From assembly GCA_017410525.1 (NCBI GenBank), contig JAFQQQ010000005.1, positions 81,105-145,104 on the forward strand: a stretch of DNA of 64,000 bases. The letters are read 5' to 3'. The position numbers and the translations under genes were made by a program. This DNA is from Bacilli bacterium. GTDB taxonomy: Bacteria; Bacillota_I; Bacilli_A; RF39; UBA660. Below the pieces are notes generated by a model, which did no database searches, was not told where the DNA came from, and saw only the letters and a program-made list of their open reading frames with translations. This document shows, in pieces, positions 882-30,891 of the stretch (positions within the stretch are counted from its first letter, which is position 1; every line of letters starts with the position of its first letter).

Positions 882-923
882 TCAATTTTTATTAATTTTA
901 AAATATATATTATGTAAAAAGAA

Positions 924-939
924 TGTTTCACGTGAAACA
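924..939. promoter_or_regulatory. parS: parS site 6 (exact), core of a 22-bp palindrome at 921-942, 8 bp downstream of the gyrA stop
   Basis: Exact 16-mer. Confidence 0.8.
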
Positions 940-946
940 TTCTTTT

Positions 947-3487: not shown

Positions 3488-3499
3488 GTATTACACCTC

Positions 3500-5425
3500 C
3501 TAAATATCTAAGTTTTCTACAAATTTAGCATTTTCTTCTATAAATGCACGTCTAGGTTCTACTTCATCACCCATTAATCTTTCAAATATAGAATCTGCTG
3601 CCATACAATCATCTACTGTTATTTTTCTAAGTATTCTTTTTTCAATATCCATAGTAGTTTCATTAAGTTCAGAAGCATCCATTTCTCCTAAACCTTTCAT
3701 ACGAGCTATTTCTACTCTACCTCTTACATTATCTGGAAGTGTTGCTAAATATGCTTCTTTTTCTGCTTCATCTAACACATATTTTCTGGTTTTACCATGA
3801 GTAATTCTAAATAATGGTGGTTGAGCTGCATAAACATGTCCTGCCTCTACTATAGGTTTAAAGAATCTATAGAATAAAGTTAATAATAATACGCGAATGT
3901 GTGATCCATCGACATCAGCATCAGTCATGATTATTATTTTGTCATATCTTAATTTTTCTAAATTAAAATCTTCACCAATACCTGTTCCAAAAGCAGTTAT
4001 AATAGTTCTTATTTCTTCATTACCTAAAGCTCTATCAAGTCTTGCTTTTTCTACATTCAAAATCTTACCTCTAAGCGGTAAAATTGCTTGTGTCATAGCA
4101 TCTCTACCTTTTTTAGCACTTCCACCAGCAGAATCCCCTTCGACTATAAATATTTCAGATACTTTTGGATCTTTACTTTTACAATCAGAAAGTTTTCCAA
4201 AAAAATTAGTCATTGCTAAATCACTTTTTCTTGTAATCTCTCTTGCTTTTTTAGCAGCATTTCTAGCACGACATGCTAACATTGCTTTTTCTATAATAAC
4301 TCTTGCTTCATCTGGATTTTCAAATAAAAATTTTTCAAATCCTTCACTAAATACATTATCTGCAAGTTTTCTAACTTCACTATTTCCAAGTCTACCTTTT
4401 GTTTGACCTTCAAATTGTGGATTAGGATGTTTACAAGAAATAATCATTGTTAATCCTTCTTTAACATCATCACCTGTTAAATTTTCATCTTTATCTTTTA
4501 TAATATTAAATTTTCTAGCATAATTATTTATAACACGTGTTAAAGCTCTTTTAACACCTTCTTCATGAGTACCACCATCATGAGTATTAATATTATTAAC
4601 AAAAGAATAAATATTATCGTTATATCCATTTGTATATTGAAGAGCAACTTCAAACACTACATTATCTTCTGTTCCTTCTAAATGAATAATATTTTCATGA
4701 ATAGATGTTTTTTCTTGATTTATAAATTTAACATATTCACTAATACCACCTTCATAAACAAAAGTTTCACCTGTTGTATCTTCTTCATCTCTATCATCTC
4801 TTAAAGTTATTCTTAAACCTTTATTTAAGAAAGCAAGTTCTCTAATTCTTACTTTTAATGTATTATAATCATAAATATCAGTATCAAATATTTTAGGATC
4901 TGGTTTAAATGTTACCCATGTTCCAGTTCTATCAGGTTCGCATTCTCCTATTACTTTTAATGGTTCCGTAGTTTTACCACCATTTTCAAATTTAATATAG
5001 TGTATTTTTCCGTTTTTATAAACTGTTACTTCTACCCAACTAGATAAGGCATTAACTACTGAAGCACCTACGCCATGAAGACCTCCAGATACTTTGTATC
5101 CTCCTCCACCAAATTTTCCTCCAGCATGAAGAACAGTATAAACTGTCTCTACAGTACTCTTTTTAGTTTTTGGGTGTATATCCACTGGAATACCACGACC
5201 ATCATCTTTTACTGTTATTGAATTACCTTTATTTATAATAACTTCAATATCATCACAATATCCTGCTAAAGATTCATCTATAGCATTATCCACGATTTCC
5301 CAAACTAAATGGTGTAACCCTTTAACATCTGTTGTACCAATGTACATACCAGGTCTTTTTCTAACTGCTTCTAATCCTTCTAATACTTGAATATCCGATG
5401 CATCATAATGTGTCTCATTACTCAT
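3500..5425 (-). CDS. gyrB: DNA gyrase subunit B
   Basis: 641-aa ORF with the GHKL ATPase N-terminus (…[15 protein letters not shown]…), TOPRIM motifs (EGDSAGG) and C-terminal …EENAKFV. Overlaps recF by 8 bp. Confidence 0.95.
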
Positions 5426-6545
5426 CTAACTTCACCTCTTTGATCTTTATTATGTTGCCATTATTTATATTAAATAACTTAGATTTCTTAATTAATTTAG
5501 GATCTAAATTATTCAAATCAGTTGTTGTAATAATTGTTTGTATATTTTTACTTATATACTTTAACAAATTATTTTTCTTTTTATCATCTAACTCACTAAA
5601 TATATCATCTAATAATAATATTGGAGTTGATTCTTTATATTTCTTAAATATTTCTATTTCAGCTAATTTTAATGCTAAAACTGCTACTCTTTGTTGTCCT
5701 TGTGAACCATAATATTTTAAGTTTTTATCGCCTAAATAAAACTCAATATCATCTTTATGTGGTCCAATACTAGTTGAACAAAGTTTTATATCATAATCTA
5801 ATTTTTTATCATATTCTTTTTTTAAATATTCTTTTAAATTAGAATCTTTTAAATTTATTTCAATACTCGGTTTATATTTAATACTAAAATCATCTAAATC
5901 CATAATATCTTTATAAATATCTTTACAATATTCATTTACTTTTTTTATAAACTTATCTCTCATTTTATATATCATTATAGATTTATCTATCAAATAACCA
6001 GTTAATATTTCTATATAATTTTTATCAACAGATACTTTTTTATTTATCTTTTTTAAATATTCATTTCTTAATTTTAAAATTTTATTATACTCATTTATAA
6101 GTACAAAATAATTACTATATAACTGAGATAATTCTAAATTAATATATTTTCTTCTATTTATTGGAGATCCTTTAATTAATTCTAAATCATCTGGATAAAA
6201 AATAATTATATTCATTAAAGAAATATAATCACTTATCTTTTTTATAGTATTATTATTAAATTTTAATATTTTAGTTTTATTATCTATATAAATATTAAAT
6301 TTATTATCTATCTTCTCATTATTAACAATACCTTCTATAGTTAAATAATCACCAGTATTATTTATAAGATTATTATCTATAAAACTTCGATGTGATTTTG
6401 TAAGGCCTAAAACATATATACTTTCAAGTAAATTTGTTTTTCCTTGAGCATTTTCTCCATAAATTATATTTATTCCTTTTGTAAGAGTAACATTTAAACT
6501 TTTATAATTTCTAAAATCGTGTAATTTTAACTTTTTTATATACAT
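5418..6545 (-). CDS. recF: DNA replication/repair protein RecF
   Basis: 375 aa with the N-terminal Walker A motif [14 protein letters not shown] and an SMC-like C-terminal signature. Canonical position between dnaN and gyrB. Confidence 0.9.
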
Positions 6546-6654
6546 AATTTCACTTTTTTCATTCTAATCCCCCTATTTTTGATTTTAGTAAGTTTAAGTA
6601 CTCCTATACATCTATATACATTATACCACAATTTTACCTATAAAAAAAGAAAAA

Positions 6655-7113
6655 TTAGTTTTTTTCTTCTAATTTTCTTTCATATAATTTAGATTTTAAC
6701 ATAGTAGCTCGTACAATTTGATTTTCTAATGAATTAATTGAAATATCTAAATCTAATCTATCTTGATTTTTAAATAAAATTTCGCTATTTTGATGCGCTT
6801 TTTTTGATATTTCTTTAATTTTATTTAAAGCAATCCAAGTACTTTGTTTAGTTCTTGTTGAAGAAGTTGGAAAAAATATAATATTTCTACTTTCTTCTAT
6901 TATTATAGGAAACTTAGTTTTTATTCCGGTTAATGTTTTAGTTCCTATACATCTACCTTCATATGAACTTCCATAAAACTCACAATTATCTTTAATAATA
7001 CTATTTGCAGACTTTTGTACAATATATTCATATTCTTCTTCATAAACTTTAGATACTTCATCACCCAAAGGTACTATAGCTAGAGTTGCTGAACTTATTT
7101 CATAATTTTCCAT
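6655..7113 (-). CDS. comK: ComK-family competence transcription factor homolog
   Basis: 152 aa. The stretch EFYGSSYEGRCIGTKTLTGIKTKFPIIIEESRNIIFFPTSSTRTKQSTWIALNKIKEI aligns to B. subtilis ComK RFFGSSYAGRKAGTYEVTKISHKPPIMVDPSNQIFLFPTLSSTRPQCGWISHVHVKEF. The C-terminal ISINSLENQIVRATMLKSKL aligns to ISYNSFENQVYRTAWLRTKF. Confidence 0.75.
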   Translation of the reverse strand: MENYEISSATLAIVPLGDEVSKVYEEEYEYIVQKSANSIIKDNCEFYGSSYEGRCIGTKTLTGIKTKFPIIIEESRNIIFFPTSSTRTKQSTWIALNKIKEISKKAHQNSEILFKNQDRLDLDISINSLENQIVRATMLKSKLYERKLEEKN

Positions 7114-7199
7114 ACTATCCCCCTTTCTTGCTATCTCTTATACACCTTTATTTTGTCGAAATTGATAGAACTATGTCGATAACTAAAAAAATGTACAAA

Positions 7200-7235
7200 A
7201 AAACTACAAATTGTTGATTTTTGTAGTTTTATACG
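7200..7235 (-). terminator. Rho-independent terminator after dnaN
   Basis: Inverted repeat AAACTACAAA / TTTGTAGTTT with a T-run on the minus strand, immediately downstream of the dnaN stop. Confidence 0.5.
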
Positions 7236-7247
7236 CATATTTTTTAA

Positions 7248-8369
7248 TTAATATGTTCTAATTGGTAATATTAATTGCGTTAAATCATCATTATCCACAT
7301 AGTTAATTATAATTGGTTTAATTTCTCCATTAAATGATAATTCAATTTCCTCACTATCAAAAGTTTTAATTGCATCCATCATATATTTTGAACTAAATGA
7401 TATTTTTATATCACTTTCTACATTCTTTTCTATTTTAATTTTTTCTTCTACATTACCTATTTCTGGAATATTTGATGAAATAATCATTATATCTTTTTTA
7501 GTTTCTAATTTAATAATATTTTTTTCTTCTGCATTTGTTAATAGAGATGCTCTATCTATTGCATTAAAGAAATTATCTAAGTTTAATTTTATTTTTAATT
7601 CAAAATTTTCTGGAATTAATTTATTTGTATCTGGATAATTACCATTTATTAATCTAGTCATAACTATTAAATTACCTATTTTAAATATAACTTTATTTGA
7701 GAAAATGTGTAACTCTATTTTTTCTTCATCATCACTCATTAATTTAATTATTTCGTTTAAATTTCTACTTGGAATAATAATATCAATATTATCATCAACT
7801 TTATTATCTAACATAATTCTTTTTTTAGATAATCTGTATGAATCAGTAGCAGTTACTTCCATAATATTTTCATTAATTTTAAAGTTAATACCTGTTAATA
7901 CTGGTCTACTTTCTTGCGTAGACGTAGCAAATATAGTTTGATTAATAGTAGTTTTAAAAACTCTTTTATCAATAAGTACAGGTGTTCCTGTAAATTCTAA
8001 ATCTATACTTGGAAATTCATTAACTTCATTACAATTTAATTTAAATGAAGATGATTCTGTAGTTATTAATACTTGTGAATCAATTATTTCTTCAATGTTT
8101 ATAATTTCATTATTTAATTTTCTTACTATATCATATATATATCTACCTGATATTAATAATTCTCCTTGAACATCTATATTATCAATTTCATTTGCAGGTA
8201 TAAAAGACTTTATAGCAAGCTCATTGTCTGTGCTTAATAAATATAAACCTTCGTTAGTCAATTCAAATTTAATACAGTTTAAAATAGGAATTAAATTTTT
8301 ACTTGATATTCCTCTTATTACGTAGTTTAAGTGCTCCATTAATACTTTTTGTTTAATTGATAATTTCAT
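7248..8369 (-). CDS. dnaN: DNA polymerase III beta sliding clamp
   Basis: 373 aa with the three-domain clamp architecture (MKLSIKQKVLMEHLNYVIRGIS…) and a conserved C-terminus. Directly downstream of dnaA. Confidence 0.95.
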   Translation of the reverse strand: MKLSIKQKVLMEHLNYVIRGISSKNLIPILNCIKFELTNEGLYLLSTDNELAIKSFIPANEIDNIDVQGELLISGRYIYDIVRKLNNEIINIEEIIDSQVLITTESSSFKLNCNEVNEFPSIDLEFTGTPVLIDKRVFKTTINQTIFATSTQESRPVLTGINFKINENIMEVTATDSYRLSKKRIMLDNKVDDNIDIIIPSRNLNEIIKLMSDDEEKIELHIFSNKVIFKIGNLIVMTRLINGNYPDTNKLIPENFELKIKLNLDNFFNAIDRASLLTNAEEKNIIKLETKKDIMIISSNIPEIGNVEEKIKIEKNVESDIKISFSSKYMMDAIKTFDSEEIELSFNGEIKPIIINYVDNDDLTQLILPIRTY

Positions 8370-8419
8370 ATTTTACCTTCTTTCTTAATAAATATTATTA
8401 TTTTTATTAGTGTTCATAA

Positions 8420-8428
8420 TGTGCATAA
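8420..8428. promoter_or_regulatory. DnaA box (TGTGCATAA = TTATGCACA) in the dnaA-dnaN spacer
   Basis: Exact match to the TTATNCACA consensus. Confidence 0.6.
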
Positions 8429-8501
8429 CCCTATTTTATCCTTTATTTTTAATACTTTTTCTAATGTTTATAAAAAGTTTATATTTTTAATTAATTAACA
8501 T

Positions 8502-9857
8502 TTATCTAATTTCATTTAACATTTTTTGTATTTCTCCATTTAAATAATCATCTTTAATTATTTCTTTTTTAATTTTATCAACTGCGTGCATAACTGTTGT
8601 ATGATTTTTACCACCAAATTGAATACCTATTTTAGTTAGATTCTCATCAAGATATACACGACATATATACATAGCTATCATTCTAGGAATTGCTATATCA
8701 TTACTTCTTTTTTTACTTAACAATTCTTCGTTAGTTAAATTATAATGATCACAAACTATTTGAACTACTTGATCCATTTTATTTTTAGATACAATAGTTT
8801 TAACAAAATAATCTCTTAATGCTTCTATAGTTAAATCCATTGTAATATCTGAACCATTCATCATAGTTGCATATGCAAATACTCTTGTAATTGCTCCTTC
8901 AAGTTTTCTAACATCCCCTACACAATTACTAGCTATATATTCTTTGACATCTTCAGGAACTACTCCAGAAAGTTCATTATTTTCTATTTTCTTATTTAAT
9001 ATAGACATTCTAAGTTTAAAATCTGGAGGTAATATATTAACTTGAAGTCCCCAGTTAAATCTTGTTTTTAATCTCTCTTCTAACTTTTTTATATCGTCAG
9101 GTGATCTATCTGATGATATTATTATTTGTTTTTCATTATTATATAGTTCATTAAATGTGTTGAAAAATTCTTGTTGGGCACTTGTAGCCCCTACCAAATT
9201 GTGTATATCATCAATTATTAATACATCTATATCTCTATATTTATTTTTAAATTGTTTAATAGCATCCATATTATTAGAACCTGCATTTTTTCTACAAATA
9301 TCAACAAAATCAGATACAAAATTATCACAAGTTATATATAAAACTTTTTTATTACTATTTTTTATTATATAGTTACCAATTGAGTGCATTAAATGCGTTT
9401 TACCTAACCCACTCGATCCATATATAAATAAAGGATTATACATTTTTCCAGGTTGTTCTGCAACAGCTAAAGCACTCGTTGCAGCAAATTTATTGCTAGG
9501 TCCTACCATAAAATTTTCAAATGAATATTTAGGATCTAGATTAGATTCATATAAATCATTGTTATTAGGAACACCTATTATTTGATTATCTTCAGTTAAA
9601 TTATTTTCTACTTCTTCTTCTATAACATAATTAAATTTAAAGTTACTACCACTAATTTCAGTAAAAACTTCTTCAATTATATCACTGTAATTTTCACTTA
9701 AATTTTTTTTATGTATATGATAAGGAACTAATACAGTAGCTGTTTTATTATTTAAACTAATAAGTTTAGTCTCTGAAAACCAAGTTTCAAAAGCAATATC
9801 TGATATTTGAACTTTAATTTTCTCTAAAAATGAATTCCAAATATTATTTAAATCCAT
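8502..9857 (-). CDS. dnaA: Chromosomal replication initiator DnaA
   Basis: 451 aa with an AAA+ domain (Walker A GSSGLGKTHL) and the C-terminal DNA-binding domain IV (…KNHTTVMHA…). Confidence 0.95.
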   Translation of the reverse strand: MDLNNIWNSFLEKIKVQISDIAFETWFSETKLISLNNKTATVLVPYHIHKKNLSENYSDIIEEVFTEISGSNFKFNYVIEEEVENNLTEDNQIIGVPNNNDLYESNLDPKYSFENFMVGPSNKFAATSALAVAEQPGKMYNPLFIYGSSGLGKTHLMHSIGNYIIKNSNKKVLYITCDNFVSDFVDICRKNAGSNNMDAIKQFKNKYRDIDVLIIDDIHNLVGATSAQQEFFNTFNELYNNEKQIIISSDRSPDDIKKLEERLKTRFNWGLQVNILPPDFKLRMSILNKKIENNELSGVVPEDVKEYIASNCVGDVRKLEGAITRVFAYATMMNGSDITMDLTIEALRDYFVKTIVSKNKMDQVVQIVCDHYNLTNEELLSKKRSNDIAIPRMIAMYICRVYLDENLTKIGIQFGGKNHTTVMHAVDKIKKEIIKDDYLNGEIQKMLNEIR

Positions 9858-10582: not shown

Positions 10583-10933
10583 ATGAAAAAAATCAATATT
10601 TTAAAAAATAGTCGAGATTTTGATAGAATAATAAAAGGAAACAAACCATATAAATATAAGGACTATATTATATATATAGAAAGAAACACTAATGATTTAT
10701 ATAAGTTTGGTTTATCAGTAGGAAAGAAGATAGGTAATGCTGTTAATAGAAATAAAGTTAAAAGACAACTAAAATCCATAATTGATAAAAAAGACTATCA
10801 AAATAATTTCAATTGTATTATAATAGTGGGTAAGGGAATTAATGAAAAAAATTATGAAGAAAAAGAAAAAAATTTATTTTTTGCCCTTAATAATTTAAAT
10901 ATAATAAAGGAGAATACAGATGAAAAAAAATAA
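10583..10933 (+). CDS. rnpA: Ribonuclease P protein component
   Basis: 116 aa with the RNR-like motif AVNRNKVKRQLK. Position between rpmH and yidC. Confidence 0.85.
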   Translation: MKKINILKNSRDFDRIIKGNKPYKYKDYIIYIERNTNDLYKFGLSVGKKIGNAVNRNKVKRQLKSIIDKKDYQNNFNCIIIVGKGINEKNYEEKEKNLFFALNNLNIIKENTDEKK

Positions 10934-11915
10934 AAAGTTATTTATAGTAGTAATTTCTTTAATGTTTTTACTTACTGGATGTACTAAACAATTTAAAGAT
11001 GCTGATGGAAAAGTAGTACAAGATCCAACAACAAAACAAACATTAGTAGAAAACATTTTATGTAGACCTGTTAATTTAAAAGGTACTTATGAAACAGCGA
11101 TAGAAGAAAAAAAAGTAGCACTTAAAAAATTATATGAAGATGGAGATTTATCTAAAAAAGAATATAAATCAAAAGTAGATAGTTTACTTAATTTAGAAGA
11201 ACTTCCTGTTTGTACTGAAATGTCTGTAATAGAAGGCGGATATGAATCAATTTGGACAAGTATATTTGTTAAACCTTTAGCTTGGTTGATTATACAATTA
11301 GGAAAATTAGTTAAAAATTATGGTTTAGCAATCATACTTATAACAGTCCTAATTAAAATAATATTATTTCCATTAACTTATAAATCACTAAAACAAAGTG
11401 AAGCTATAAAAAAAGTTCAACCTAAATTAAATAAAATAGAAAAAAAATATGCTGGGAAAACAGATCAAGAATCAATGATGATGAAATCTAACGAAATGAT
11501 GGCATTATATAAAGAACATAAAATTAATCCTATGTCAGGATGTTTAACTAGTTTCTTACAAATACCAATATTTTTTGCATTCTATGAAGCTCTATATCGT
11601 TTACCACTTCTATTCGAAGGTAAGTTCTTAGGTCTTCATATGGGTATGACACCACTTGCAGCAGCAGGACAAGGTGATTGGTATTACTTAATATTACCAC
11701 TAATAGTTGGACTTGTTACATATTTTTCATTCAAAATGAATAAGAATGGACAACCTAATGATCAAATGAAACAAATGAATATGATGTTTAATATAATGGT
11801 AGTAATGATATTTATAACTTCATTTAGTATGTCGGTCGCAATTATTATATATTGGGTAGTTAATAGTTTATTAGGTATAGGTCAAAACTTATTAATTAAG
11901 AAAGGAAGTAAATAA
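10920..11915 (+). CDS. yidC: Membrane protein insertase YidC/SpoIIIJ (lipoprotein-type)
   Basis: 331 aa with a lipobox (LLTGC), the 60-kDa inner-membrane protein core and conserved TM helices. Confidence 0.85.
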   Translation: MKKNKKLFIVVISLMFLLTGCTKQFKDADGKVVQDPTTKQTLVENILCRPVNLKGTYETAIEEKKVALKKLYEDGDLSKKEYKSKVDSLLNLEELPVCTEMSVIEGGYESIWTSIFVKPLAWLIIQLGKLVKNYGLAIILITVLIKIILFPLTYKSLKQSEAIKKVQPKLNKIEKKYAGKTDQESMMMKSNEMMALYKEHKINPMSGCLTSFLQIPIFFAFYEALYRLPLLFEGKFLGLHMGMTPLAAAGQGDWYYLILPLIVGLVTYFSFKMNKNGQPNDQMKQMNMMFNIMVVMIFITSFSMSVAIIIYWVVNSLLGIGQNLLIKKGSK

Positions 11916-11916
11916 T

Positions 11917-12513
11917 ATGGTAAAAGTTTATAAATTTGAAAGTGATACAGAAGAAAACTGTAGAATTAAATGTTTAGAAGAATTAGATGTTTATAATAAT
12001 GAAATCTTAACAAAAGAATATGCAGAAGAAAATACATATTATATGGAAGTAGTTAAAAAATCAGATGTAGAAGAATATATAAATGAATTTTTAACAAAAA
12101 TAACTACAGATATAGGAGTTAATACAAGAATAGAAATATTAGAAGAAGATGGAGTATTTACTGCTAAAATGTTTTCAAATAATAACTCAATATTAATTGG
12201 AAAAGATGGTAGAACTTTAAAATCTTTACAAGTATTACTTAGACAATCACTTAGTAATCAAATTAAATTTAATGTAAAAGTTAATTTAGATGCATCTAAT
12301 TACAAAATAAAAAAAGAAAGATTTTTTGAAAAAGATATTAAAAACATTATAAATGACGTAATGAAATCTAAAGATGAAGTAAAACTTGATCCAATGAATT
12401 CTTATAAAAGAAGAATCGTACATTCAGTAGCTAGTGAATACTACAATATAGAAACTGAAAGTTTCGGTGAAGAACCAGAAAGATATGTAGTAATTAGATA
12501 TGTAGAAAAATAA
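11917..12513 (+). CDS. jag: Jag/KhpB RNA-binding protein (KH + R3H domains)
   Basis: 198 aa with a C-terminal R3H-like motif (…YKRRIVHSVASEY…). Conserved position after yidC. Confidence 0.8.
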   Translation: MVKVYKFESDTEENCRIKCLEELDVYNNEILTKEYAEENTYYMEVVKKSDVEEYINEFLTKITTDIGVNTRIEILEEDGVFTAKMFSNNNSILIGKDGRTLKSLQVLLRQSLSNQIKFNVKVNLDASNYKIKKERFFEKDIKNIINDVMKSKDEVKLDPMNSYKRRIVHSVASEYYNIETESFGEEPERYVVIRYVEK

Positions 12514-12537
12514 TATACCAAAAGGTATATTTTTTTA
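12513..12537 (+). terminator. Rho-independent terminator after jag
   Basis: ATATACC-AAAA-GGTATAT hairpin plus a T7 run. Confidence 0.6.
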
Positions 12538-12575
12538 TTTAAATATGTTAAACTTAATATATAAGAGGGTTTTAT

Positions 12576-12986
12576 ATGAGAAAAGAAGAAAATTTGAATA
12601 AATTAAAATATTTAAGGCACATTTTAATAGATTATTTATTTGAAACTATAGATGACAACAAGCACATTAAAGAATATTTTGATAAGTATTTATTTTATTC
12701 AACATTTGAAATAGATACTTATGAAAAAATAGGTGATTTTGAATATGTACAATTTGATTTAGCAGCACAAAATACTGGAAATATTTTCAAATATAGATAC
12801 GATATAAAAAATGATGAATATAAATTAATAGATAATCCAGTAATATATTCTGCTAAAGTAGATAATTTTGAAATAAAAAAAGAGATATTAAAAGAAATAT
12901 TTGATATAGCTAGAGAAAATAAAGAATTGTTGGCCGCAGAAAAAGTGTTAACCAAAAAATTAATAAAATTAGAAAGTATATCTTAG
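12576..12986 (+). CDS. Hypothetical protein (no recognisable domain) inserted between jag and mnmE
   Basis: 136-aa ORF, K/E/Y-rich. Confidence 0.5.
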   Translation: MRKEENLNKLKYLRHILIDYLFETIDDNKHIKEYFDKYLFYSTFEIDTYEKIGDFEYVQFDLAAQNTGNIFKYRYDIKNDEYKLIDNPVIYSAKVDNFEIKKEILKEIFDIARENKELLAAEKVLTKKLIKLESIS

Positions 12987-13039
12987 GGTATATTTTTTTT
13001 TATTTTTTTGATATTATATACGTGTTGGGAAGTGATTAT

Positions 13040-14389
13040 ATGAATGATACAATAGCTGCCATTTCAACTACTATGGGTGTAGGGGCTATATCTATAATAA
13101 GAGTAAGTGGAAATGAAGCAATAAATATAGTTAATAGAATATTTAAAGGAAAAGATTTAAATATAGTAGATAGTCATACAATAAATTATGGACATATAGT
13201 AGAAAATAAAAATATAATAGATGAAGTTTTAGTAAGTATTATGAAAGCACCTCGTACTTTTACAAGAGAAGATATAGTAGAAATAAATACACATGGTGGT
13301 ATAGCTATAACTAATAAAGTATTAGAACTCTTACTTTTAAATGGTTGTAGACTTGCTGAACCAGGAGAATTCACTAAAAGAGCTTTCTTAAATGGTAGAA
13401 TAGATTTAATAGAAGCAGAAGGAGTAATGGAATTAATTAATTCTAAAACTGAAAAATCTAGAAAGTTAGCTATTAATCAAGTAAATGGAGAAGTATCTAA
13501 ACTTATAAAAGATTTAAGACAAAAAGTAATAGAAATTTTAGCTAACATAGAAGTTAATATAGATTATCCTGAATATGAAGATATTGAAGAAATGACTAAT
13601 AGTATGATTCTTTCTAATATAGATGATATAGAAAAAGAAATAAAAAATATATTAAGTCATTCAGAAAATAGTAAACTAATAAAAGATGGAATTAAAACAA
13701 TAATAATAGGAAGTCCTAATGTAGGAAAAAGTAGTATATTAAATAGACTTCTTAATGAAGAAAAAGCAATTGTAACAGATATTGCAGGGACAACAAGAGA
13801 TATTGTGGAAGGAAATATTCAAATAGATGGTATAGTTCTTAATATGATAGATACAGCAGGTATCAGAGAAACAGACGATTTGGTAGAAAGCATAGGAGTT
13901 AAGAAAAGTCTTGATTTAATAAATGAAGCTGATTTAATATTATATGTTTTAAATAATAATGAAGACTTAACTAAAGAAGAACAAGAAATATTAGATAGAA
14001 TTAAATATAAAAATAATATAATAATAGTTAATAAAACAGATTTAAAAAATAAATTAAATTTAACTTTATTACCGAATTATATAGAAATGTCAGTTAAAAA
14101 TGATATTGGTATAAATGAATTAAGAAATAAAATAAAAGAAATATTTAATTTAGAAAAAATAGAACAAAACGATTATACTTATTTAAGTAGTGCTCGTTCA
14201 ATATCACTTCTAAAAAAATCATTAGAAAGTTTAGATGCAGTAAGAACAGGTATAGAAAACAATATGCCTATAGATATGGTAGAAATAGATTTAAAACAAA
14301 TGTGGTCAACACTTGGAGAAATAATAGGTGAAACATATACCGATGAACTTATAGATCAATTATTTAGTCAATTTTGTTTAGGAAAATAG
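13040..14389 (+). CDS. mnmE: tRNA modification GTPase MnmE
   Basis: MNDTIAAISTTMGVGAISIIRVSG N-terminus, a G-domain (GSPNVGKSS, DTAGIRE) and a C-terminal CxGK tail. Start is taken at the ATG at 13040, not the upstream GTG at 13022. Confidence 0.9.
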   Translation: MNDTIAAISTTMGVGAISIIRVSGNEAINIVNRIFKGKDLNIVDSHTINYGHIVENKNIIDEVLVSIMKAPRTFTREDIVEINTHGGIAITNKVLELLLLNGCRLAEPGEFTKRAFLNGRIDLIEAEGVMELINSKTEKSRKLAINQVNGEVSKLIKDLRQKVIEILANIEVNIDYPEYEDIEEMTNSMILSNIDDIEKEIKNILSHSENSKLIKDGIKTIIIGSPNVGKSSILNRLLNEEKAIVTDIAGTTRDIVEGNIQIDGIVLNMIDTAGIRETDDLVESIGVKKSLDLINEADLILYVLNNNEDLTKEEQEILDRIKYKNNIIIVNKTDLKNKLNLTLLPNYIEMSVKNDIGINELRNKIKEIFNLEKIEQNDYTYLSSARSISLLKKSLESLDAVRTGIENNMPIDMVEIDLKQMWSTLGEIIGETYTDELIDQLFSQFCLGK

Positions 14390-14413
14390 TATACTTAGTG
14401 TATACTTTTTTTA
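14388..14413 (+). terminator. Rho-independent terminator after mnmE
   Basis: AGTATAC-TTAG-TGTATACT hairpin plus a T7 run. Confidence 0.6.
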
Positions 14414-14489
14414 TTTAATAAAATATTTATTGTTAAAATAAAAAAAAGATAGTATAATATCAACAGAAACACGGAAGTTAGGTGATAAA

Positions 14490-16361
14490 ATGTATGAAAT
14501 CATAGTAGTAGGTGGAGGTCATGCAGGCTGTGAAGCAAGTTTAGCTTGTGCGCGTAAAGGACATAAAACACTACTTGTAACAGGTAATATAAAAAATATA
14601 GCAGATATGCCTTGTAATCCATCTATTGGTGGAAGTGCTAAAGGTATAGTAGTAAGAGAAATAGATGCATTAGGCGGAGAAATGGGGCGAAATGCAGATA
14701 AAAGTTTACTACAAATAAAAATGCTTAATAGTGCTAAAGGTCCTGCTGTTAGGGCACTTAGAGCCCAAGCAGATAAAATAACTTATCCTAAAAATATGAT
14801 TGAAACATTAAATAGTACACCTAATTTAGAAATTAAAGAAGCAATTGTAGAAGATTTAATAGTAGAAGATAATATTATTAAAGGAATAAAATTAGAAGAT
14901 GGAACTTCAATATATAGTGAAGTTGTAATACTTACAACAGGAACATATTTAAAAGCAGATATATTGATTGGGGATAAAAGAACTAGGCAAGGACCTCATG
15001 GAGAAAAACCAAGTAATCATTTAAGTGATAAATTAAAAGATTATGGATTTAATATTATTAGACTTAAAACGGGAACTCCTCAAAGAATAGAAAAGAGTTC
15101 AATAGATTATTCTAAAACAAAAGTTGAATATGGTGATGATAGATATTGGACATTTAGTTTTGATAATGAAATATATTATGATAAAGATAAACAAATACCA
15201 TGTCACTTAATATATACACAACCAGAAACTCATGAAATAATAAGAGAAAATTTAAATAAATCAAGTATGTATGGTGGTTTGGATGATATAAAAGGGGTAG
15301 GGCCAAGATACTGTCCATCAATTGAAGATAAGGTAGTAAGATTTGCTGATAAAGAAAGACATCAATTATTTTTAGAACCTGAAAGTATTTATTATGATGA
15401 CATTTATATTCAAGGTTTTTCAACAAGTATGCCTTCATATGTACAAGAAAAAATGGTGCACTCTCTACCAGGACTTGAAAATGCAATAATAAACAAATAT
15501 GCATATGCAATAGAATATGATGCAATTGATTCAAAACAATTAAAACAATCATTAGAAACAAAAGTAATTGAAAATTTATTTACCGCAGGACAAATAAATG
15601 GTACGAGTGGTTATGAAGAAGCAGCTTGTCAAGGTTTAATTGCTGGTATAAATGCTTGTTTAAAGTTAGAAGGAAAAGAACCTTTAGTACTTAAAAGAAA
15701 TGAAGCATATATAGGTGTTTTAATAGATGATTTAGTAACTAAGGGAATAATAGATCCTTATAGATTATTAACTTCACGTGCTGAATATAGATTACTTTTA
15801 AGACATGATAATGCAGATATGAGACTTAGAGATTATGGTTATCAAGTAGGTTTGGTAGATCAAGAAAGATACGATAAGTTTGAAAATAAGAAAAAAGAAA
15901 TAGAAGAATTAACAGAATCTTTGAAAAATATAAAACTTACTCCAAAAGTTGAAACAAATGAATATTTAACAAGTATTGGATTACCTGAATTAAAAGATGG
16001 AATAAGTTTATATAATTTCATAAAAAGACCAGAAGTAAAATTAGAAACTTTAACTAAGTATATAGAAAAAGAATATTCAAATGAAATACTAGAACAAGTA
16101 GAAATAAATATTAAATATGAAGGATATATAAAAAAAGCGGTAGAAGAAGCTAATAAAATGGTTGATTTAGATAATAAAAAAATACCTGAAGATATAGATT
16201 ATGATAGAATACATAATCTTGCTAGTGAAGCAAAACAAAAATTAAATCAAATAAGACCTACCTCAATAGGACAAGCCTTAAGAATAAGTGGTGTTAATCC
16301 AGCAGATATATCGTTATTGATGGTATATATAAAAAAGGAATATTTTTATGAACAAAGATAG
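14490..16361 (+). CDS. mnmG: tRNA uridine 5-carboxymethylaminomethyl modification enzyme MnmG (GidA)
   Basis: 623 aa with an FAD-binding N-terminus (MYEIIVVGGGHAGCEAS). Confidence 0.95.
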   Translation: MYEIIVVGGGHAGCEASLACARKGHKTLLVTGNIKNIADMPCNPSIGGSAKGIVVREIDALGGEMGRNADKSLLQIKMLNSAKGPAVRALRAQADKITYPKNMIETLNSTPNLEIKEAIVEDLIVEDNIIKGIKLEDGTSIYSEVVILTTGTYLKADILIGDKRTRQGPHGEKPSNHLSDKLKDYGFNIIRLKTGTPQRIEKSSIDYSKTKVEYGDDRYWTFSFDNEIYYDKDKQIPCHLIYTQPETHEIIRENLNKSSMYGGLDDIKGVGPRYCPSIEDKVVRFADKERHQLFLEPESIYYDDIYIQGFSTSMPSYVQEKMVHSLPGLENAIINKYAYAIEYDAIDSKQLKQSLETKVIENLFTAGQINGTSGYEEAACQGLIAGINACLKLEGKEPLVLKRNEAYIGVLIDDLVTKGIIDPYRLLTSRAEYRLLLRHDNADMRLRDYGYQVGLVDQERYDKFENKKKEIEELTESLKNIKLTPKVETNEYLTSIGLPELKDGISLYNFIKRPEVKLETLTKYIEKEYSNEILEQVEINIKYEGYIKKAVEEANKMVDLDNKKIPEDIDYDRIHNLASEAKQKLNQIRPTSIGQALRISGVNPADISLLMVYIKKEYFYEQR

Positions 16362-17049
16362 ATTTATAGAAGAAGTGGAAAGTCTTGGTATAGAAATAAC
16401 AGATAAAAAACTAGAGCAACTAGAAAAATATTATGCACTTCTAATTGAATATAACAAAGTTATGAATTTAACTGGAATTACGGAAAAAGAAGAAGTTTAT
16501 TTAAAACACTTTTATGATTCATTAGCAATATCTAAAATAATAGATTTAAATAATGAAAATAGTTTATGTGATTTAGGAAGCGGAGCAGGATTCCCAGGTA
16601 TTGTTATTAAAATATTTTATCCTCAATTAGAAATAGTTTTAGTAGATTCATTGAATAAGAGAATTAACTTTTTAAATACAGTAATAAAAAAATTAGATTT
16701 AGAAAAAATAACTGCTATGCATTCTAGAATAGAAGAATATGCTGTTGAAAACAAAGAACAATTTGATATTGTAACAGCAAGAGCGGTAGCTCCCCTAAAC
16801 ATTCTTTTAGAATTAGGTATTAATTTAGTAAAAGTTGGGAAATATTTTATAGCTATGAAAGGTAATATAGAAAATGAACCTGAGTATAGTAACGCAATAA
16901 AAAAATTAGATTGTTCTCTGGATAATATTGTAAAATTTAGATTACCAATAGAAGAAAGTAATAGAAGTTTAATAAAAATAAGAAAAGAAAAAACAACTTC
17001 AAAACTTTTTCCTAGAAAATATAGTGATATAAAAAAGAAACCTTTATAA
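16348..17049 (+). CDS. rsmG: 16S rRNA m7G527 methyltransferase RsmG (GidB)
   Basis: 233 aa with a SAM-binding motif (DLGSGAGFPG). Confidence 0.9.
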   Translation: MNKDRFIEEVESLGIEITDKKLEQLEKYYALLIEYNKVMNLTGITEKEEVYLKHFYDSLAISKIIDLNNENSLCDLGSGAGFPGIVIKIFYPQLEIVLVDSLNKRINFLNTVIKKLDLEKITAMHSRIEEYAVENKEQFDIVTARAVAPLNILLELGINLVKVGKYFIAMKGNIENEPEYSNAIKKLDCSLDNIVKFRLPIEESNRSLIKIRKEKTTSKLFPRKYSDIKKKPL

Positions 17050-17070
17050 TAGGTTTTCTTTTTGTTTTCA

Positions 17071-17139
17071 ATTATTTCCCAAAAATATTTATAAATATTT
17101 CCCAAACTTATTGCAATATTTCCCAAAATGTTGTAGAAT
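17071..17139 (+). promoter_or_regulatory. Promoter region of the noc-like gene with three direct repeats of ATATTTCCCAAA
   Basis: ATTTCCCAAA repeated at about 17073, 17096 and 17117 (21-23 bp phasing). These overlap a putative -35 TTGCAA (17111-17116), a 17-nt spacer and an extended -10 TGTAGAAT (17131-17139). Confidence 0.45.
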
Positions 17140-17168
17140 GATAGTGAAGAATAAAAAGGAGGGATATC

Positions 17169-18920
17169 ATGTATGATAATTCATCTAGGGTAATAGAAGT
17201 AGATATCAACGAAATATTACCTAATAGATTTCAACCAAGAATACAATTTGATGAAGAAGAAATATTAGAATTATCTGATTCAATAAAAGAACATGGTGTT
17301 ATCCAACCTTTAGTAGTTAGGACTATTGGAGATAAATATGAAATAATTGCTGGAGAAAGAAGATATAAAGCAAGTGTTCTTGCTGGAAAAGAAACGGTAC
17401 CAGTGATTGTTAAAAATTTAAATGATAAAGATAGTGCAGAAATCGCACTTATAGAAAATATACAAAGAAAAAATTTAACACCTATAGAAGAAGCATTAAG
17501 TTATAAAAAAATTCTTGATATGGGATATATAACTCAAGAAAATCTAGCTTCTAAATTAGGTAAAAGTCAATCTGCAGTTGCTAATAAAATAAGATTATTA
17601 AATTTATCTGATGAAGTTCAAGAAGCATTACTTGAAAATAAAATTTCAGAAAGACATGCAAGATCGCTTTTAAAACTTACAACTTCTAAACAACAAAATG
17701 AAATGTTAAATAGAATTATTTCTGAAAGATTAACAGTTAGAAGAGCAGATGAAGAAATAGAGAAAATGAAAAATAACGTAGAGCAGGACAAAAAAGAAGA
17801 TAATCAAATAATCATAGAAAAAGGGGAAATAGATATGAATAATAATATGTTTGGAATGCCTAATGTTCCACAAACTTCACAACCATCAACAGGCTTTGAT
17901 ATATTTGGACCATCAAATCAACAACCAGTACAACCACAACCTGTAGTTAGTGCAATACCAGAGCCTGAGCAACAACTTGTTACTCCAAGTTTTGATATAT
18001 TTGGTGGCTCAGCAACTTTAGAAATGCCTTCGAGTGTACCGGAAGTTGAAGTTCCAACAATGAATATATCAGCAGTGCCAGAAATGCCAGTAATGAGTGA
18101 AATGGGATTTGGAATAAATAATACAGAATCAACAACACCAGAAATATCATCGAGTGTTCCAAAAATTGAAGTTCCAACAATGGATATACCAGCAGTACCA
18201 GAAATGCCAGCAATGAGTGAAATGGGATTTGGAATAAATAATACAGAATCAACAACACCAGAAATATCATCGAGTGTTCCAAAAATTGAAGTTCCAACAA
18301 TGGATATACCAGCAGTACCAGAAATGCCAGCAATGAGCGAAATGGGATTTGGAATAAATAATACAGGATCAACAACACCAGAAATATCATCGAGTGTTCC
18401 AAAAATTGAAGTTCCAACAATGGATATACCAGCAGTACCAGAAATGCCAGCAATGAGCGAAATGGGATTTGGAATAAATAATACAGGATCAACAACACCA
18501 GAAATACCTTCAAGCGTACCAGAAGTTGAAGTTCCAATAATGGAAGTACCAGTTACTTCACCTATTATAGAAACTCCAATAGCTAGTTCTCCAGTAGAGA
18601 TGCCACAACAAATAGAGAATTCATTTAGCTTTGGAAATAATAATATGAATCCTGTTGAAGTATCTACTCCAGCGGTAGAAACACCAGTAGTACCAGAATT
18701 TAAAATACCAGAACCAATTATTGTTACAGATTATTCTAAACAATATGACCCAGTTATGCCACAATATGGACCAGTAGCTCCAGCAGTTGATTTTAAAGAA
18801 GTAATAAATGCAATAAGAGAATGTTCAAATAAAATAGAACAATATGGATTTAAAATAGATGTAGAAGAAATAGATTTAGTAAATTTATATCAAGCAGTAT
18901 TTAAAATAGAGAAACAATAA
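17169..18920 (+). CDS. ParB/Noc-family protein with a long C-terminal 40-aa tandem-repeat region
   Basis: The N-terminal ~200 aa form a ParB-N domain (…IIAGERRYKAS…, HTH). Residues ~285-460 carry 4.4 copies of the repeat PEISSSVPKIEVPTMDIPAVPEMPAMSEMGFGINNTESTT. Sits in the noc position downstream of rsmG. Confidence 0.8.
   Translation: MYDNSSRVIEVDINEILPNRFQPRIQFDEEEILELSDSIKEHGVIQPLVVRTIGDKYEIIAGERRYKASVLAGKETVPVIVKNLNDKDSAEIALIENIQRKNLTPIEEALSYKKILDMGYITQENLASKLGKSQSAVANKIRLLNLSDEVQEALLENKISERHARSLLKLTTSKQQNEMLNRIISERLTVRRADEEIEKMKNNVEQDKKEDNQIIIEKGEIDMNNNMFGMPNVPQTSQPSTGFDIFGPSNQQPVQPQPVVSAIPEPEQQLVTPSFDIFGGSATLEMPSSVPEVEVPTMNISAVPEMPVMSEMGFGINNTESTTPEISSSVPKIEVPTMDIPAVPEMPAMSEMGFGINNTESTTPEISSSVPKIEVPTMDIPAVPEMPAMSEMGFGINNTGSTTPEISSSVPKIEVPTMDIPAVPEMPAMSEMGFGINNTGSTTPEIPSSVPEVEVPIMEVPVTSPIIETPIASSPVEMPQQIENSFSFGNNNMNPVEVSTPAVETPVVPEFKIPEPIIVTDYSKQYDPVMPQYGPVAPAVDFKEVINAIRECSNKIEQYGFKIDVEEIDLVNLYQAVFKIEKQ
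18025..18550 (+). repeat. 120-bp in-frame tandem repeat (~4.4 copies, ~98% identical) inside the ParB/Noc-like gene
   Basis: Period-120 recurrence of ...gaagttccaacaatggatataccagcagtaccagaaatgcc... at 18050, 18170, 18290, 18410 and 18530. Confidence 0.9.
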
Positions 18921-28268: not shown

Positions 28269-28799
28269 ATGAAAAAAACAATATTTTTACTTTTTGGAAT
28301 AATAATAGCTTATATATTAATTGGTAATATTGTAAGTGCGAATGATATAATACCAGATGATGCAATAAGGATAAGAGTGATTGGCAATTCTAATAGTGAA
28401 TACGATCAAGAAATAAAATATAAAGTTAAAGATATAGTGGAGTATGATATGTATAATTTATTAAAAAGTACAACTGATTTAAGGGTTGCTAGAGAGTTAA
28501 TAAAAGGTAATTTACCTAACTTAGAAAATAATATTTACACTACTTTACAAAAAGAAGAGTATAAATTACCTTTTTCTGTTAATTTTGGATTAAATTACTT
28601 TCCTGAAAAGGAATACAAAGGCATAATTTATGAAGAAGGATACTATGAATCAGTAGTTGTCACTTTAGGAGAAGGTTTAGGTGATAATTGGTGGTGCGTA
28701 TTATTCCCACCTTTATGTATGTTAGAAGCAGAAGATACTAATACTACTGATGTTGAATACACAACACTTGTAAAAACTATAATAGATAAATATTTTTAA
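28269..28799 (+). CDS. spoIIR: Stage II sporulation protein R
   Basis: 176 aa with a signal peptide. IPDDAIRIRVIGNSNSEYDQ… and GDNWWCVLFPPLCM match B. subtilis SpoIIR IPDQAIRLRILANSDSDQDQ… and GANWWCVLFPPLCF. Confidence 0.85.
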   Translation: MKKTIFLLFGIIIAYILIGNIVSANDIIPDDAIRIRVIGNSNSEYDQEIKYKVKDIVEYDMYNLLKSTTDLRVARELIKGNLPNLENNIYTTLQKEEYKLPFSVNFGLNYFPEKEYKGIIYEEGYYESVVVTLGEGLGDNWWCVLFPPLCMLEAEDTNTTDVEYTTLVKTIIDKYF

Positions 28800-29375: not shown

Positions 29376-30680
29376 CTATTTTCTATCTATGTTTGCAAGT
29401 GAACTGTTTTTATAATTTACATCATCAGTTACTTCTTTAATCACTTTTAATTTGTCTGGGAATGTTATTTCTTGATTTTCGTTATTTAATTCAATTTCAA
29501 CAATTGCTTTATCATTCCAAAATGGATAAATATCAATTTCAAAATATTGATTTTTATAAATTAGACAATATCTAGTCTTTCTTATCTGTTGTTTTGTTAT
29601 ATCAGCATTCATAAGTAAACTTAAGTATTCATCTTTAGATAATCTTTTTTCTATTTCTATTCTTTTTAAATTGTTAATATTTTTCTTTATAGTTTTAGTA
29701 TAGATATAATTTCCATCTATACCTCTTTGTCTTACTCTAATTTCTTCATCGTTATTAGAGTTTAAATAAGTTTGAATAATTTGTAATTTTTTACAATTTT
29801 TATTTAGCCAATTTATATCAGGGTATTCAATTAAGAACTTTCTTTCTATTTCATATGGTTCTGGTTCTCCTAAGAATAGAGAGATCTCTTTTATTAGTTT
29901 TTTCATTTTATTATCAAAGTTAGTTGAATTATCTATTACCCTAAAATGTGGATGTCCGTTCCAAACATTTATTAATTTATCATCTGATAAAATGGCTTCT
30001 TTCACTGTTTCTGATCTAGCAGAATTATTTTCTGTTGTGTAGAACTCTTCTGCGCCTTTAGCGGCTGTTACTAAGTGAAATACAGCATCGTAGTTATCTC
30101 TAAGTTCTATTTCGTTTTTGTTTAATTCATTTAATATTGTTGAAAATTCTAAGTTTGAGAGATAGGCTTTACTATCCATAATACCTCGATCACAAAAAAT
30201 TAGTATTTTTTTATTTTTGCTAGTTTTAGCAGCTTCTTCATAAATACCTTCTCTTTCAAGTTGAAGTTTCATAAGTGCGGTTTGAAAGTCAACAACGCTA
30301 TTACAAGTAATACCGGATATACCCGCGGTTATTAGTTCAGTTGCGCATTCGGGAACAAATATTACATGATAACCTAAATCAGTAAATGCATTTTGTATCC
30401 AACTCATTGCAGTAGTTTTACCTGCGCATGGACCACCAGTTATTACTATTTTAATAATTTCTTTTTTTTGCTCAGTTTTCAATTGTAATAATTTTTCGAT
30501 AGGAACATTAAATAAAATAGATATTTTTTTTAATGTATCCGTATTAGGTTTTGCTTTTCCATTTTCCCACTTTGATATTGCTTTATTAGTAACTCCTAAC
30601 TTGATTGCTAATTCACTTTGAGTTAATTTAGATTTAGTTCTTAACTCACATAATAAGTTGCCAAAATCATAATCATTCAT
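29376..30680 (-). CDS. Three-domain protein: XRE-type HTH + P-loop NTPase (NadR/RNK-like, AAA_28-type) + C-terminal CYTH triphosphate-tunnel domain
   Basis: 434 aa. N-terminal LTQSELAIKLGVTNKAISKWENGK is an HTH_3 domain. Walker A VITGGPCAGKTT follows. The C-terminal EIERKFLIEYP… is the CYTH ExExK signature. Confidence 0.75.
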   Translation of the reverse strand: MNDYDFGNLLCELRTKSKLTQSELAIKLGVTNKAISKWENGKAKPNTDTLKKISILFNVPIEKLLQLKTEQKKEIIKIVITGGPCAGKTTAMSWIQNAFTDLGYHVIFVPECATELITAGISGITCNSVVDFQTALMKLQLEREGIYEEAAKTSKNKKILIFCDRGIMDSKAYLSNLEFSTILNELNKNEIELRDNYDAVFHLVTAAKGAEEFYTTENNSARSETVKEAILSDDKLINVWNGHPHFRVIDNSTNFDNKMKKLIKEISLFLGEPEPYEIERKFLIEYPDINWLNKNCKKLQIIQTYLNSNNDEEIRVRQRGIDGNYIYTKTIKKNINNLKRIEIEKRLSKDEYLSLLMNADITKQQIRKTRYCLIYKNQYFEIDIYPFWNDKAIVEIELNNENQEITFPDKLKVIKEVTDDVNYKNSSLANIDRK

Positions 30681-30891
30681 AGAGATCCCGCCTTCAACAA
30701 TATTATATAAAAATATTATTTATAGTTCAATAAAAAGAAGTCGAAAGTAGGTAGAAATAAAAATGTAAATAAACTAAATTATAAATATATAATAATTTAC
30801 AACACTAAATATAAATGTTATAATTGTAATGACAACTACTAAACACCAATTTAGGCAAAATACATAATATATAGTAGTTTTGGAGGTATAA

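Follow-up and report, generated by a model that had tools for sequence, protein, structure and literature searches.

A putative autoregulated fusion of helix-turn-helix, P-loop kinase and triphosphate tunnel domains in gut and rumen Firmicutes

Why would a bacterium join a DNA-binding domain, a P-loop phosphotransferase and a triphosphate-binding tunnel in a single polypeptide? The question is raised by a gene at positions 29376-30680 (minus strand) of a 64,000-nucleotide stretch of contig JAFQQQ010000005.1 (hereafter the window), part of the core chromosome of a Bacilli metagenome-assembled genome (MAG) of 26% GC. The encoded protein carries an XRE-type helix-turn-helix (HTH), a kinase domain of the AAA_28 family and a C-terminal triphosphate tunnel metalloenzyme (TTM, or CYTH) domain. 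We propose, tentatively and as a possibility that falls a little short of probable, that this HTH-kinase-TTM protein is an autoregulated enzyme-regulator that traps and senses a nucleoside- or vitamin-type compound.

The gene is genuine and intact. It has 434 codons, an ATG start and an uninterrupted frame, and the probability that chance alone would produce, at 26% GC, an open frame of 1305 nt in which three domains match independently is negligible. An identical protein of 434 amino acids is found on 8 public contigs, with a neighbourhood that matches the window on the contigs read, and its NCBI label is solely 'AAA family ATPase [Bacilli bacterium]'. The coding sequence and its parts are located as follows.

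29376..30680, minus strand: complete coding sequence of the HTH, P-loop kinase and TTM fusion protein, 434 amino acids (open reading frame (ORF) list, public copies, AlphaFold2 (AF2) model)
30477..30668, minus strand: XRE-type HTH domain, residues ~5-68 (HTH_3, HTH_19, 7t8i, five helices in the model)
29865..30461, minus strand: P-loop phosphotransferase domain, AAA_28, residues ~74-272 (Pfam, Foldseek, invariant residues)
30414..30437, minus strand: Walker A motif GGPCAGKT, residues 82-89 (read from the sequence)
29388..29858, minus strand: CYTH/TTM domain, NeuTTM-like, residues ~275-431 (PDB, Foldseek, model)
29838..29852, minus strand: ExExK motif EIERK, residues 277-281, metal-binding acidic patch (read from the sequence)

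The three-domain composition proposed in the original prediction was confirmed by Pfam, by a match to NeuTTM in the PDB and by the AF2 model. The model was built on a 78-sequence family alignment and reached a predicted local distance difference test score (pLDDT) of 95.4 and a predicted template modelling score of 0.87. It shows the HTH as five helices (residues 4-69), a five-stranded P-loop domain with a LID segment, and a tunnel of eight strands between residues 277 and 398 plus a C-terminal helix. The HTH matches Pfam HTH_3 at residues 12-64 (E 4e-15, 56 bits, cut-off 23) and HTH_19 (E 1.8e-11, 44 bits, cut-off 30), and the ImmR-type Xre regulator 7t8i in the PDB matches it at E 1e-6. A Foldseek search with the whole model ranked NeuTTM first and AtTTM1 (7z67) fifth; most of the later matches were to thymidylate or deoxynucleoside kinases, and a few TTM enzymes stood between them.

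An HTH of this type could also belong to a toxin-antitoxin or anti-phage defence system, in which an XRE antitoxin-like domain is fused to a nucleotide-depleting effector. PADLOC and NCBIfam do return such matches (HTH_VI, RmrA and antitoxin-type XRE families), but they are confined to the HTH domain, and the kinase and tunnel domains are not covered by any defence-family match in PADLOC. Furthermore, phages and plasmids carry essentially no members of the family, the position of the gene is stable within its lineage, the neighbours are housekeeping genes (murA, mntP, lysS and ftsW among them) and the recurring partner in related species, described below, is a nutrient transporter subunit. A defence function is thus highly improbable.

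The middle region is a P-loop kinase by domain search, as had been expected, with AAA_28 matching residues 77-256 (E 1.5e-23, 84 bits, cut-off 27); the NCBIfam dTMP kinase model also matched (E 3.8e-6), under its cut-off. When the kinase domain was modelled alone (pLDDT 97), Foldseek retrieved thymidylate kinases (template modelling (TM) score ~0.7), dCK, dGK and dNK, so that the modelled fold appears closest to thymidylate and deoxynucleoside kinases. We examined residue conservation in 210 members of the family, 53 of them HTH-fused and 157 unfused. Within Walker A, G82 and K88 are invariant, and P84 is 91% conserved. The near-invariant kinase residues are G82, G87, K88, T/S89, E111, D164, R165, D169 and R222, and G166 is likewise nearly invariant. 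D164-R165-G166 form the DRG motif (CDRG, within IFCDRG at residues 161-166) and R222 is the LID arginine.

The original prediction had described this kinase as 'NadR/RNK-type', RNK being the ribosylnicotinamide kinase domain of NadR. That label, which comes solely from the broad Pfam family AAA_28, did not hold. E. coli NadR aligned to the family profile (hhalign) over 27 P-loop columns only, with a probability of 42%, and pairwise BLAST against the same protein found nothing beyond the P-loop. E. coli Tmk also aligned at the P-loop only in the profile comparison. A comparison of profile versus single sequence is therefore uninformative for the subfamily, and the fold search was used instead; it placed no NadR chain among the top 50 hits, either with the whole protein or with the kinase domain alone. 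The absence of a nicotinamide mononucleotide adenylyltransferase (NMNAT) domain, also part of the prediction, was borne out, for none was found between the HTH and the kinase with Pfam or in the model, where a linker of ~8 residues joins the two. The RNK domain of NadR is itself thymidylate-kinase-like (PMC7221760); what unites the two kinases is therefore a common fold class and membership of a broad Pfam family, and nothing further. On the P-loop-only alignment, the missing NMNAT and the lack of NadR among the top 50 Foldseek hits, we rejected the assignment and advise against listing the protein as a variant of NadR. The polyphosphate kinase PPK3, which derives from thymidylate kinase, was also considered as a relative; nothing links it to the family.

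The C-terminus is a CYTH domain, as the original prediction had it, by both its NeuTTM match and its eight-stranded tunnel in the model. Residues 277-429 align end to end with NeuTTM (2fbl/3typ); the single sequence gives E 6e-7 and the 78-sequence family profile E 1e-16, and NeuTTM is also the top Foldseek match (E 1e-9). The window protein does not reach E<=1 with the Pfam CYTH model PF01928; homologues at 65-90% identity have precomputed matches to it, and another relative (P0148) scores 30 bits. The motifs ExExK, RxR, K, ExE, KxR, ExD and ExE align with those of NeuTTM. All the acidic (E277, E279, E342, E344, E381, D383, E395 and E397) and basic (K281, R315, R317, K332, K368 and R370) tunnel residues are present, and the roles of such residues, including the ExExK acidic patch, have been described (PMC4641920). 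The expectation that the ExExK and acidic tunnel residues would be intact thus agrees with the NeuTTM alignment, the conservation in the family and the AF2 model. Because the metal-binding and basic residue set is complete, the domain is probably an active Mg/Mn-dependent hydrolase of inorganic triphosphate (PPPi) or of a ligand resembling a nucleoside triphosphate (NTP).

Conservation of the tunnel is less strict across the family. Among representatives, E277 is conserved in 81%, E279 in 78% and K281 in 90%, and all 14 tunnel residues are the same as in the window protein in 41/53 HTH-fused and 113/157 unfused members. The ExExK glutamates are lost in ~15-23% of the family clusters (e.g., QLQRK, ESQKK and YVEKK), which retain every kinase motif and the tunnel K368/R370 pair. 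The tunnel therefore seems usually, though not always, catalytically equipped in the family and looks fully equipped in the window protein. The near-invariance of the kinase motifs, set beside the loss of the ExExK glutamates in 15-23% of the clusters, points to the kinase as the invariant catalytic core of the family, as judged from residue conservation.

Does the HTH act as a regulator, and of what? Upstream of the gene we identified a candidate operator, a promoter and a ribosome-binding site at these positions.

30740-30755, minus strand: predicted operator TCTACCTACTTTCGAC (cross-species conservation; 9 nt upstream of the -35 box)
30702..30730, minus strand: sigma-70-type promoter TTGAAC-17-TATAAT (consensus scan, 10/12 positions, consensus match only)
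30687..30695, minus strand: ribosome-binding site GAAGGCGGG (read from the sequence, 6 nt ahead of the ATG)

The operator was detected only via cross-species comparison; intergenic inverted repeats were by themselves uninformative in the AT-rich DNA. It spans 15-16 bp (TCTAC-N5-kTmGA), with an invariant TCTAC followed by five variable bases and then by GTAGA, in several Bacilli/Tenericutes lineages, or by TTCGA (at times TTCTA), in Clostridia and the lineage of the window. Its end lies 57-72 nt ahead of the start codon in nearly all motif-bearing loci (~30 species), and in 9 further species it stands upstream of the first gene of an operon. Over ~775 kb of related DNA, the strict pattern was nearly confined to that distance from the start codon of the fused gene or, where another gene opens the operon, to the region upstream of that gene. 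The 64 kb of the window hold one perfect match only, and one-mismatch matches are as frequent there as expected by chance, which leaves the HTH-kinase-TTM gene itself as the only detectable target predicted in the window. In the window and its relatives the operator precedes a -35-like hexamer by 9-10 nt, and its centre is therefore near -54; the -35/-10 elements keep the same distance from it in related loci. An AGGAGG-like ribosome-binding site also occupies the equivalent place in homologous loci.

We also scanned metagenome contigs for the exact 16-mer and recovered 100 sites with a downstream ORF. Unrelated and mostly random sites accounted for 85 of them, 13 were upstream of the fused gene (two of these being matches to the HTH only) and 2 were upstream of operons that begin with the transporter gene described below; no new recurrent target emerged. 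The predicted site nonetheless argues well, on comparative grounds, for a functional HTH and an autoregulated gene, and it is compatible with activation and repression alike. The original prediction of a transcription factor coupled to a nucleotide or triphosphate module stands as the best reading, and the conserved predicted operator at the protein's own promoter supports it. The operator is unlike the box of NadR, which is of the TGTTTA type.

Several related loci had unusual operator arrangements. One of the HTH-only matches in the 16-mer scan (L205) has the identical sequence TCTACCGATATTCGAC at 854-869, 29 nt upstream of a 247-aa ORF (899-1642, plus strand) that encodes a similar XRE HTH (48% identity to that of the window), a Cys-rich zinc-ribbon-like segment and membrane spans. 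The operator may thus be shared by regulators whose C-terminal modules differ. Locus L062 has two inverted-repeat operators (1509-1523 and 1591-1605), one placed 9 nt upstream of a TTGACA -35 box and the second 21 nt ahead of the start codon, a position suited to repression. In two Tenericutes/Bacillales MAGs (L064:2417-3329 and L083:4375-4972), an additional small gene stands between the operator and the HTH-kinase-TTM gene; its product is a 278-aa coiled-coil-like protein in one MAG and a 174-aa Cys-rich protein in the other. At locus L026, 0.7 kb downstream from the fused gene, a further perfect inverted repeat, TCTACTGGTAGTAGA (7023-7037), separates a divergent XRE-plus-membrane gene from two DegV-family genes. 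This repeat may serve as a second target, or a paralogous regulator may bind there. Finally, at L041 the operator (396-411) is upstream of an unfused, HTH-less copy (538-1653); HTH-coding remnants persist (tblastn match from residue 53), as though the DNA-binding domain had been lost recently.

What might such a regulator respond to? We scanned one genome per species and retrieved 80 related loci, 46 with the three-domain HTH-fused gene and 34 with an unfused one. Clustering of the neighbours yielded only one family that recurs: its ~175-aa protein spans the membrane several times and matches the substrate-binding (S) component of energy-coupling factor (ECF) transporters (PF07155, E 1e-11 to 1e-14). 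The gene is adjacent and on the same strand, upstream or downstream, and stop and start codons overlap in several loci. It was found in 13 loci, 12 of the 46 HTH-fused and only 1 of the 34 unfused. Thus, the original statement that the gene has no operon partners is true of the window but does not extend to the 12/46 related species in which it shares an operon with the S component. In the reverse check, made with S-component homologues on long contigs with distinct neighbourhoods, a 434-aa HTH-AAA_28-CYTH gene stood directly upstream in 3/3. In operons that open with the S gene, the operator is upstream of that gene. We found no riboswitch at Rfam gathering thresholds in the 13 S-linked loci, which suggests that control is probably exerted by a protein. 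PF07155 was the sole family above its curated cut-off for the S component: NCBIfam models of RibU and FolT were below theirs, a PDB search gave a very weak match to FolT (E 1.3) and the source names are generic ('ECF transporter S component').

One alternative is a NadR-type function, in which the kinase would be a ribosylnicotinamide kinase and the protein would both regulate and assist the salvage of nicotinamide adenine dinucleotide (NAD) from nicotinamide riboside, with the ECF S component replacing PnuC as importer. An HTH, a kinase and a vitamin-type transporter mirror the layout of NadR/PnuC, and the best sequence-family match, AAA_28, is also home to the RNK domain, whose thymidylate-kinase-like nature makes the fold compatible as well (PMC7221760). 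Yet there are no pnuC or NAD genes near the gene in the window or in the 80 related loci, and the triphosphatase has no known role in nicotinamide riboside salvage. Together with the P-loop-only alignment, the missing adenylyltransferase and NadR matches, the different operator and the purine bias of the domain fusions described next, this makes NAD salvage quite improbable.

The kinase-TTM core (~365 aa) forms a large family, with at least 1493 clusters at 50% identity (E<=1e-30) in an exhaustive profile-free search. Most clusters lack the HTH and cover residues ~73-430 only. Other N-terminal domains occur on the same core: P0161 has a bona fide guanylate kinase (204 bits, cut-off 160), P0235 a YedJ-like HD phosphohydrolase and P0244 a RelA/SpoT-like domain. 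These fusions point to nucleotide chemistry, particularly of guanine nucleotides or alarmones; the guanylate-kinase and RelA/SpoT fusions favour purine nucleotides over the pyridines expected of a NadR-type enzyme. The HTH-fused carriers include Bacilli, Lachnospiraceae, Ruminococcus, Oscillospiraceae, Anaerovoracaceae, Mogibacterium and 'Mollicutes/Tenericutes' MAGs, and almost every one was sampled from gut or rumen. With 46 of the 80 loci fully three-domain, the HTH fusion is common in these MAGs.

The breadth of the unfused core also suggests an alternative without a salvage role, in which the protein reports the energy or phosphate state of the cell to its own promoter. The P-loop domain would then be a nucleotide-binding switch, as in the GTP-binding TTD14, or an NTPase, the tunnel ligand would be inorganic triphosphate, short polyphosphate or an alarmone-like molecule, and the S-component link would be a lineage-specific add-on. 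Indeed, the unfused core is far commoner than the S-linked form and has no conserved neighbours, the closest solved relative of the tunnel (NeuTTM) is an inorganic triphosphatase, and HD and RelA/SpoT-like fusions exist. TTD14, with an equal P-loop and CYTH layout, binds GTP and has no known kinase activity (PMC4624897), and the tunnel of AtTTM1 has been proposed to regulate its kinase (PMC9582702). However, the near-invariant DRG motif, E111, D169 and LID R222, in a fold like that of thymidylate and deoxynucleoside kinases, are features of phosphotransfer to an acceptor rather than of a pure switch. Furthermore, the tight two-way tie to a substrate-specific importer subunit is hard to explain without a transported substrate. 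For these reasons we consider a pure triphosphate switch unlikely, if less so than NAD salvage.

In the enzyme-regulator reading that we prefer, the XRE HTH would bind the predicted 15-16 bp site at 30740-30755, just upstream of the -35 box of its own gene, as the conservation of the site across species suggests. The sensor module would consist of the P-loop phosphotransferase and the NeuTTM-type tunnel enzyme, and the same operator would drive, in approximately a quarter of the related species, an operon with a dedicated ECF S component. The kinase may phosphorylate, and thereby trap, a nucleoside- or vitamin-type compound that is either imported by the S component or made by the cell. The tunnel may bind or hydrolyze a triphosphate, be it PPPi, an NTP or the product in triphosphorylated form. 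DNA binding would then be set by whether the substrate or its (tri)phosphorylated product occupies the kinase or tunnel sites, and this would tune the expression of the enzyme and, where present, of the importer. This logic would be like that of NadR/PnuC or BirA with different parts.

Several observations weigh against this reading. The window contains no S component and no second operator, so the transport link is borrowed from other species. Most members of the family are unfused and have neither an S component nor conserved neighbours, and the core function cannot therefore depend on the transporter. The loss of the ExExK acidic residues in ~15-23% of the lineages likewise implies that tunnel hydrolysis is dispensable in some of them. 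At the promoter, a simple XRE repressor would not usually have its operator centred near -54, the right half-site allows a second reading as a direct repeat (TCTAC-N6-TC[G/T]AC) and the promoter elements are consensus matches only. Moreover, the nature of the substrate is a guess.

A bolder extension of the enzyme-regulator reading is that the protein and its dedicated S component form an unrecognised micronutrient or nucleoside salvage system of gut and rumen Firmicutes. We regard this as doubtful, yet with a better chance than the triphosphate switch. It would comprise a new S-component specificity, a new salvage kinase that would be the bacterial counterpart of TTD14, and the tunnel as the ligand sensor of the XRE regulator. 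If this is true, identification of the substrate would for the first time assign a biochemical function to the kinase-TTM family as a whole, TTD14 included.

The genes around the HTH-kinase-TTM gene are laid out as predicted, with mntP convergent (gap of 11 nt) and murA divergent. Beyond them are spoIIR, ung, an alanine symporter gene and lgt on one side, and genes for a GDSL lipase and a Bax-inhibitor protein and rpmE on the other. The spoIIR gene (stage II sporulation protein R, 28269-28799, plus strand) suggests that this 26% GC Bacilli MAG represents a spore-forming lineage. The window also contains the region of the chromosomal origin, with gyrA, gyrB, recF, dnaN and dnaA on the minus strand (947-9857) facing mnmE, mnmG and a parB-like gene on the plus strand (10583-18920) across a gap at ~9.9-10.6 kb. 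The HTH-kinase-TTM gene is ~20 kb from this region, and its transcription opposes that of its plus-strand neighbours. The ParB-like ORF (17169-18920, plus strand, 583 aa) matches the ParB N-terminal and HTH domains over its first ~200 residues only, the remainder being a long C-terminal extension.

How much of this is new? CYTH fusions to 'nucleotidyl kinase' domains have been on record since 2002, as cited in PMC8233210, and the kinase-TTM architecture is already known, though functionally uncharacterised. The original prediction had asked about the distribution of the architecture, and it proved to be widespread rather than rare; at the same time, it is unnamed, uncharacterised and labelled with the generic 'AAA family ATPase'. 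With the architecture known and the gene common and generically annotated, this is not a new kind of system. The literature searched (CYTH with NadR, CYTH with ECF, and ECF with nucleoside kinase or nicotinamide riboside) contained nothing on the HTH-kinase-TTM system. As far as we searched, the HTH-fused branch, its predicted operator and its dedicated ECF S component are new.

Kinase-TTM fusions are found in bacteria, plants (AtTTM1/2) and invertebrates (TTD14), and we know of no member with a defined substrate. The HTH-fused branch offers three handles on the problem: a predicted operator, a predicted promoter arrangement and an importer subunit whose substrate should equal that of the kinase. 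These handles make the function of the fusions directly approachable in simple in vitro and heterologous systems, and thus experimentally tractable for a family common to bacteria and, by the reported layouts, to animals and plants. The system may further point to a nutrient on which abundant gut and rumen Firmicutes, most of them uncultured, depend. Even if the substrate proved ordinary, such as a common nucleoside, thousands of 'AAA family ATPase' entries would still gain a useful annotation.

Among the known systems, NadR of E. coli, Salmonella and Haemophilus combines an HTH with an NMN adenylyltransferase and a ribosylnicotinamide kinase. Like the window protein, it is an enzyme-regulator with an N-terminal HTH, an AAA_28 P-loop kinase on the C-terminal side and a link to a vitamin importer. 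The window protein differs in having a CYTH/TTM domain and no NMNAT, in aligning with NadR at the P-loop only and in its operator, and the partner of its HTH-fused relatives is an ECF S component instead of PnuC. Enzyme-repressors of the BirA type also pair an enzyme acting on a vitamin substrate with an HTH that regulates the supply genes; this is an analogy only, as their folds and chemistry are unrelated to those of the HTH-kinase-TTM protein.

The closest solved relative of the C-terminal domain is NeuTTM (NE1496), with 29% identity over ~160 aligned columns. NeuTTM and CthTTM are stand-alone, single-domain triphosphatases, whereas the tunnel of the window protein is the C-terminal third of a fusion. 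A tandem of kinase and tunnel is found in AtTTM1 and AtTTM2 of Arabidopsis (PDB 7z67), which have a P-loop kinase, a TTM domain and a membrane anchor. The Foldseek match to 7z67 spans both domains (E 9e-8) with a poor superposition (TM 0.25, root-mean-square deviation 23 Å). The AtTTM1/2 tunnel has basic residues, is catalytically dead and has been proposed to control the kinase (PMC9582702). It contrasts in this respect with the intact tunnel of the window protein, although a minority of the bacterial members also lack the ExExK glutamates. The plant proteins differ further in that they carry a kinase of the uridine/cytidine-kinase-like type, lack the HTH and are tail-anchored in mitochondria.

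TTD14 of Drosophila also consists of a P-loop and a CYTH domain, and binds GTP and phospholipids (PMC4624897). It differs from the window protein in being eukaryotic, in having no HTH and in its role in TRPL channel trafficking. The proline at the third position of its Walker A motif (GxPxxGKT) is essential for function, an hhhhDxG motif follows ~79 residues after Walker A, and the CYTH domain lies ~200 residues past the P-loop (PMC4624897). The counterparts in the window protein are GGPCAGKT at residues 82-89, IFCDRG at residues 161-166 and a CYTH domain from residue 277. Thus, when compared by the motif positions reported for TTD14 (PMC4624897), the two proteins have the same parts in equal order and at equal spacing.

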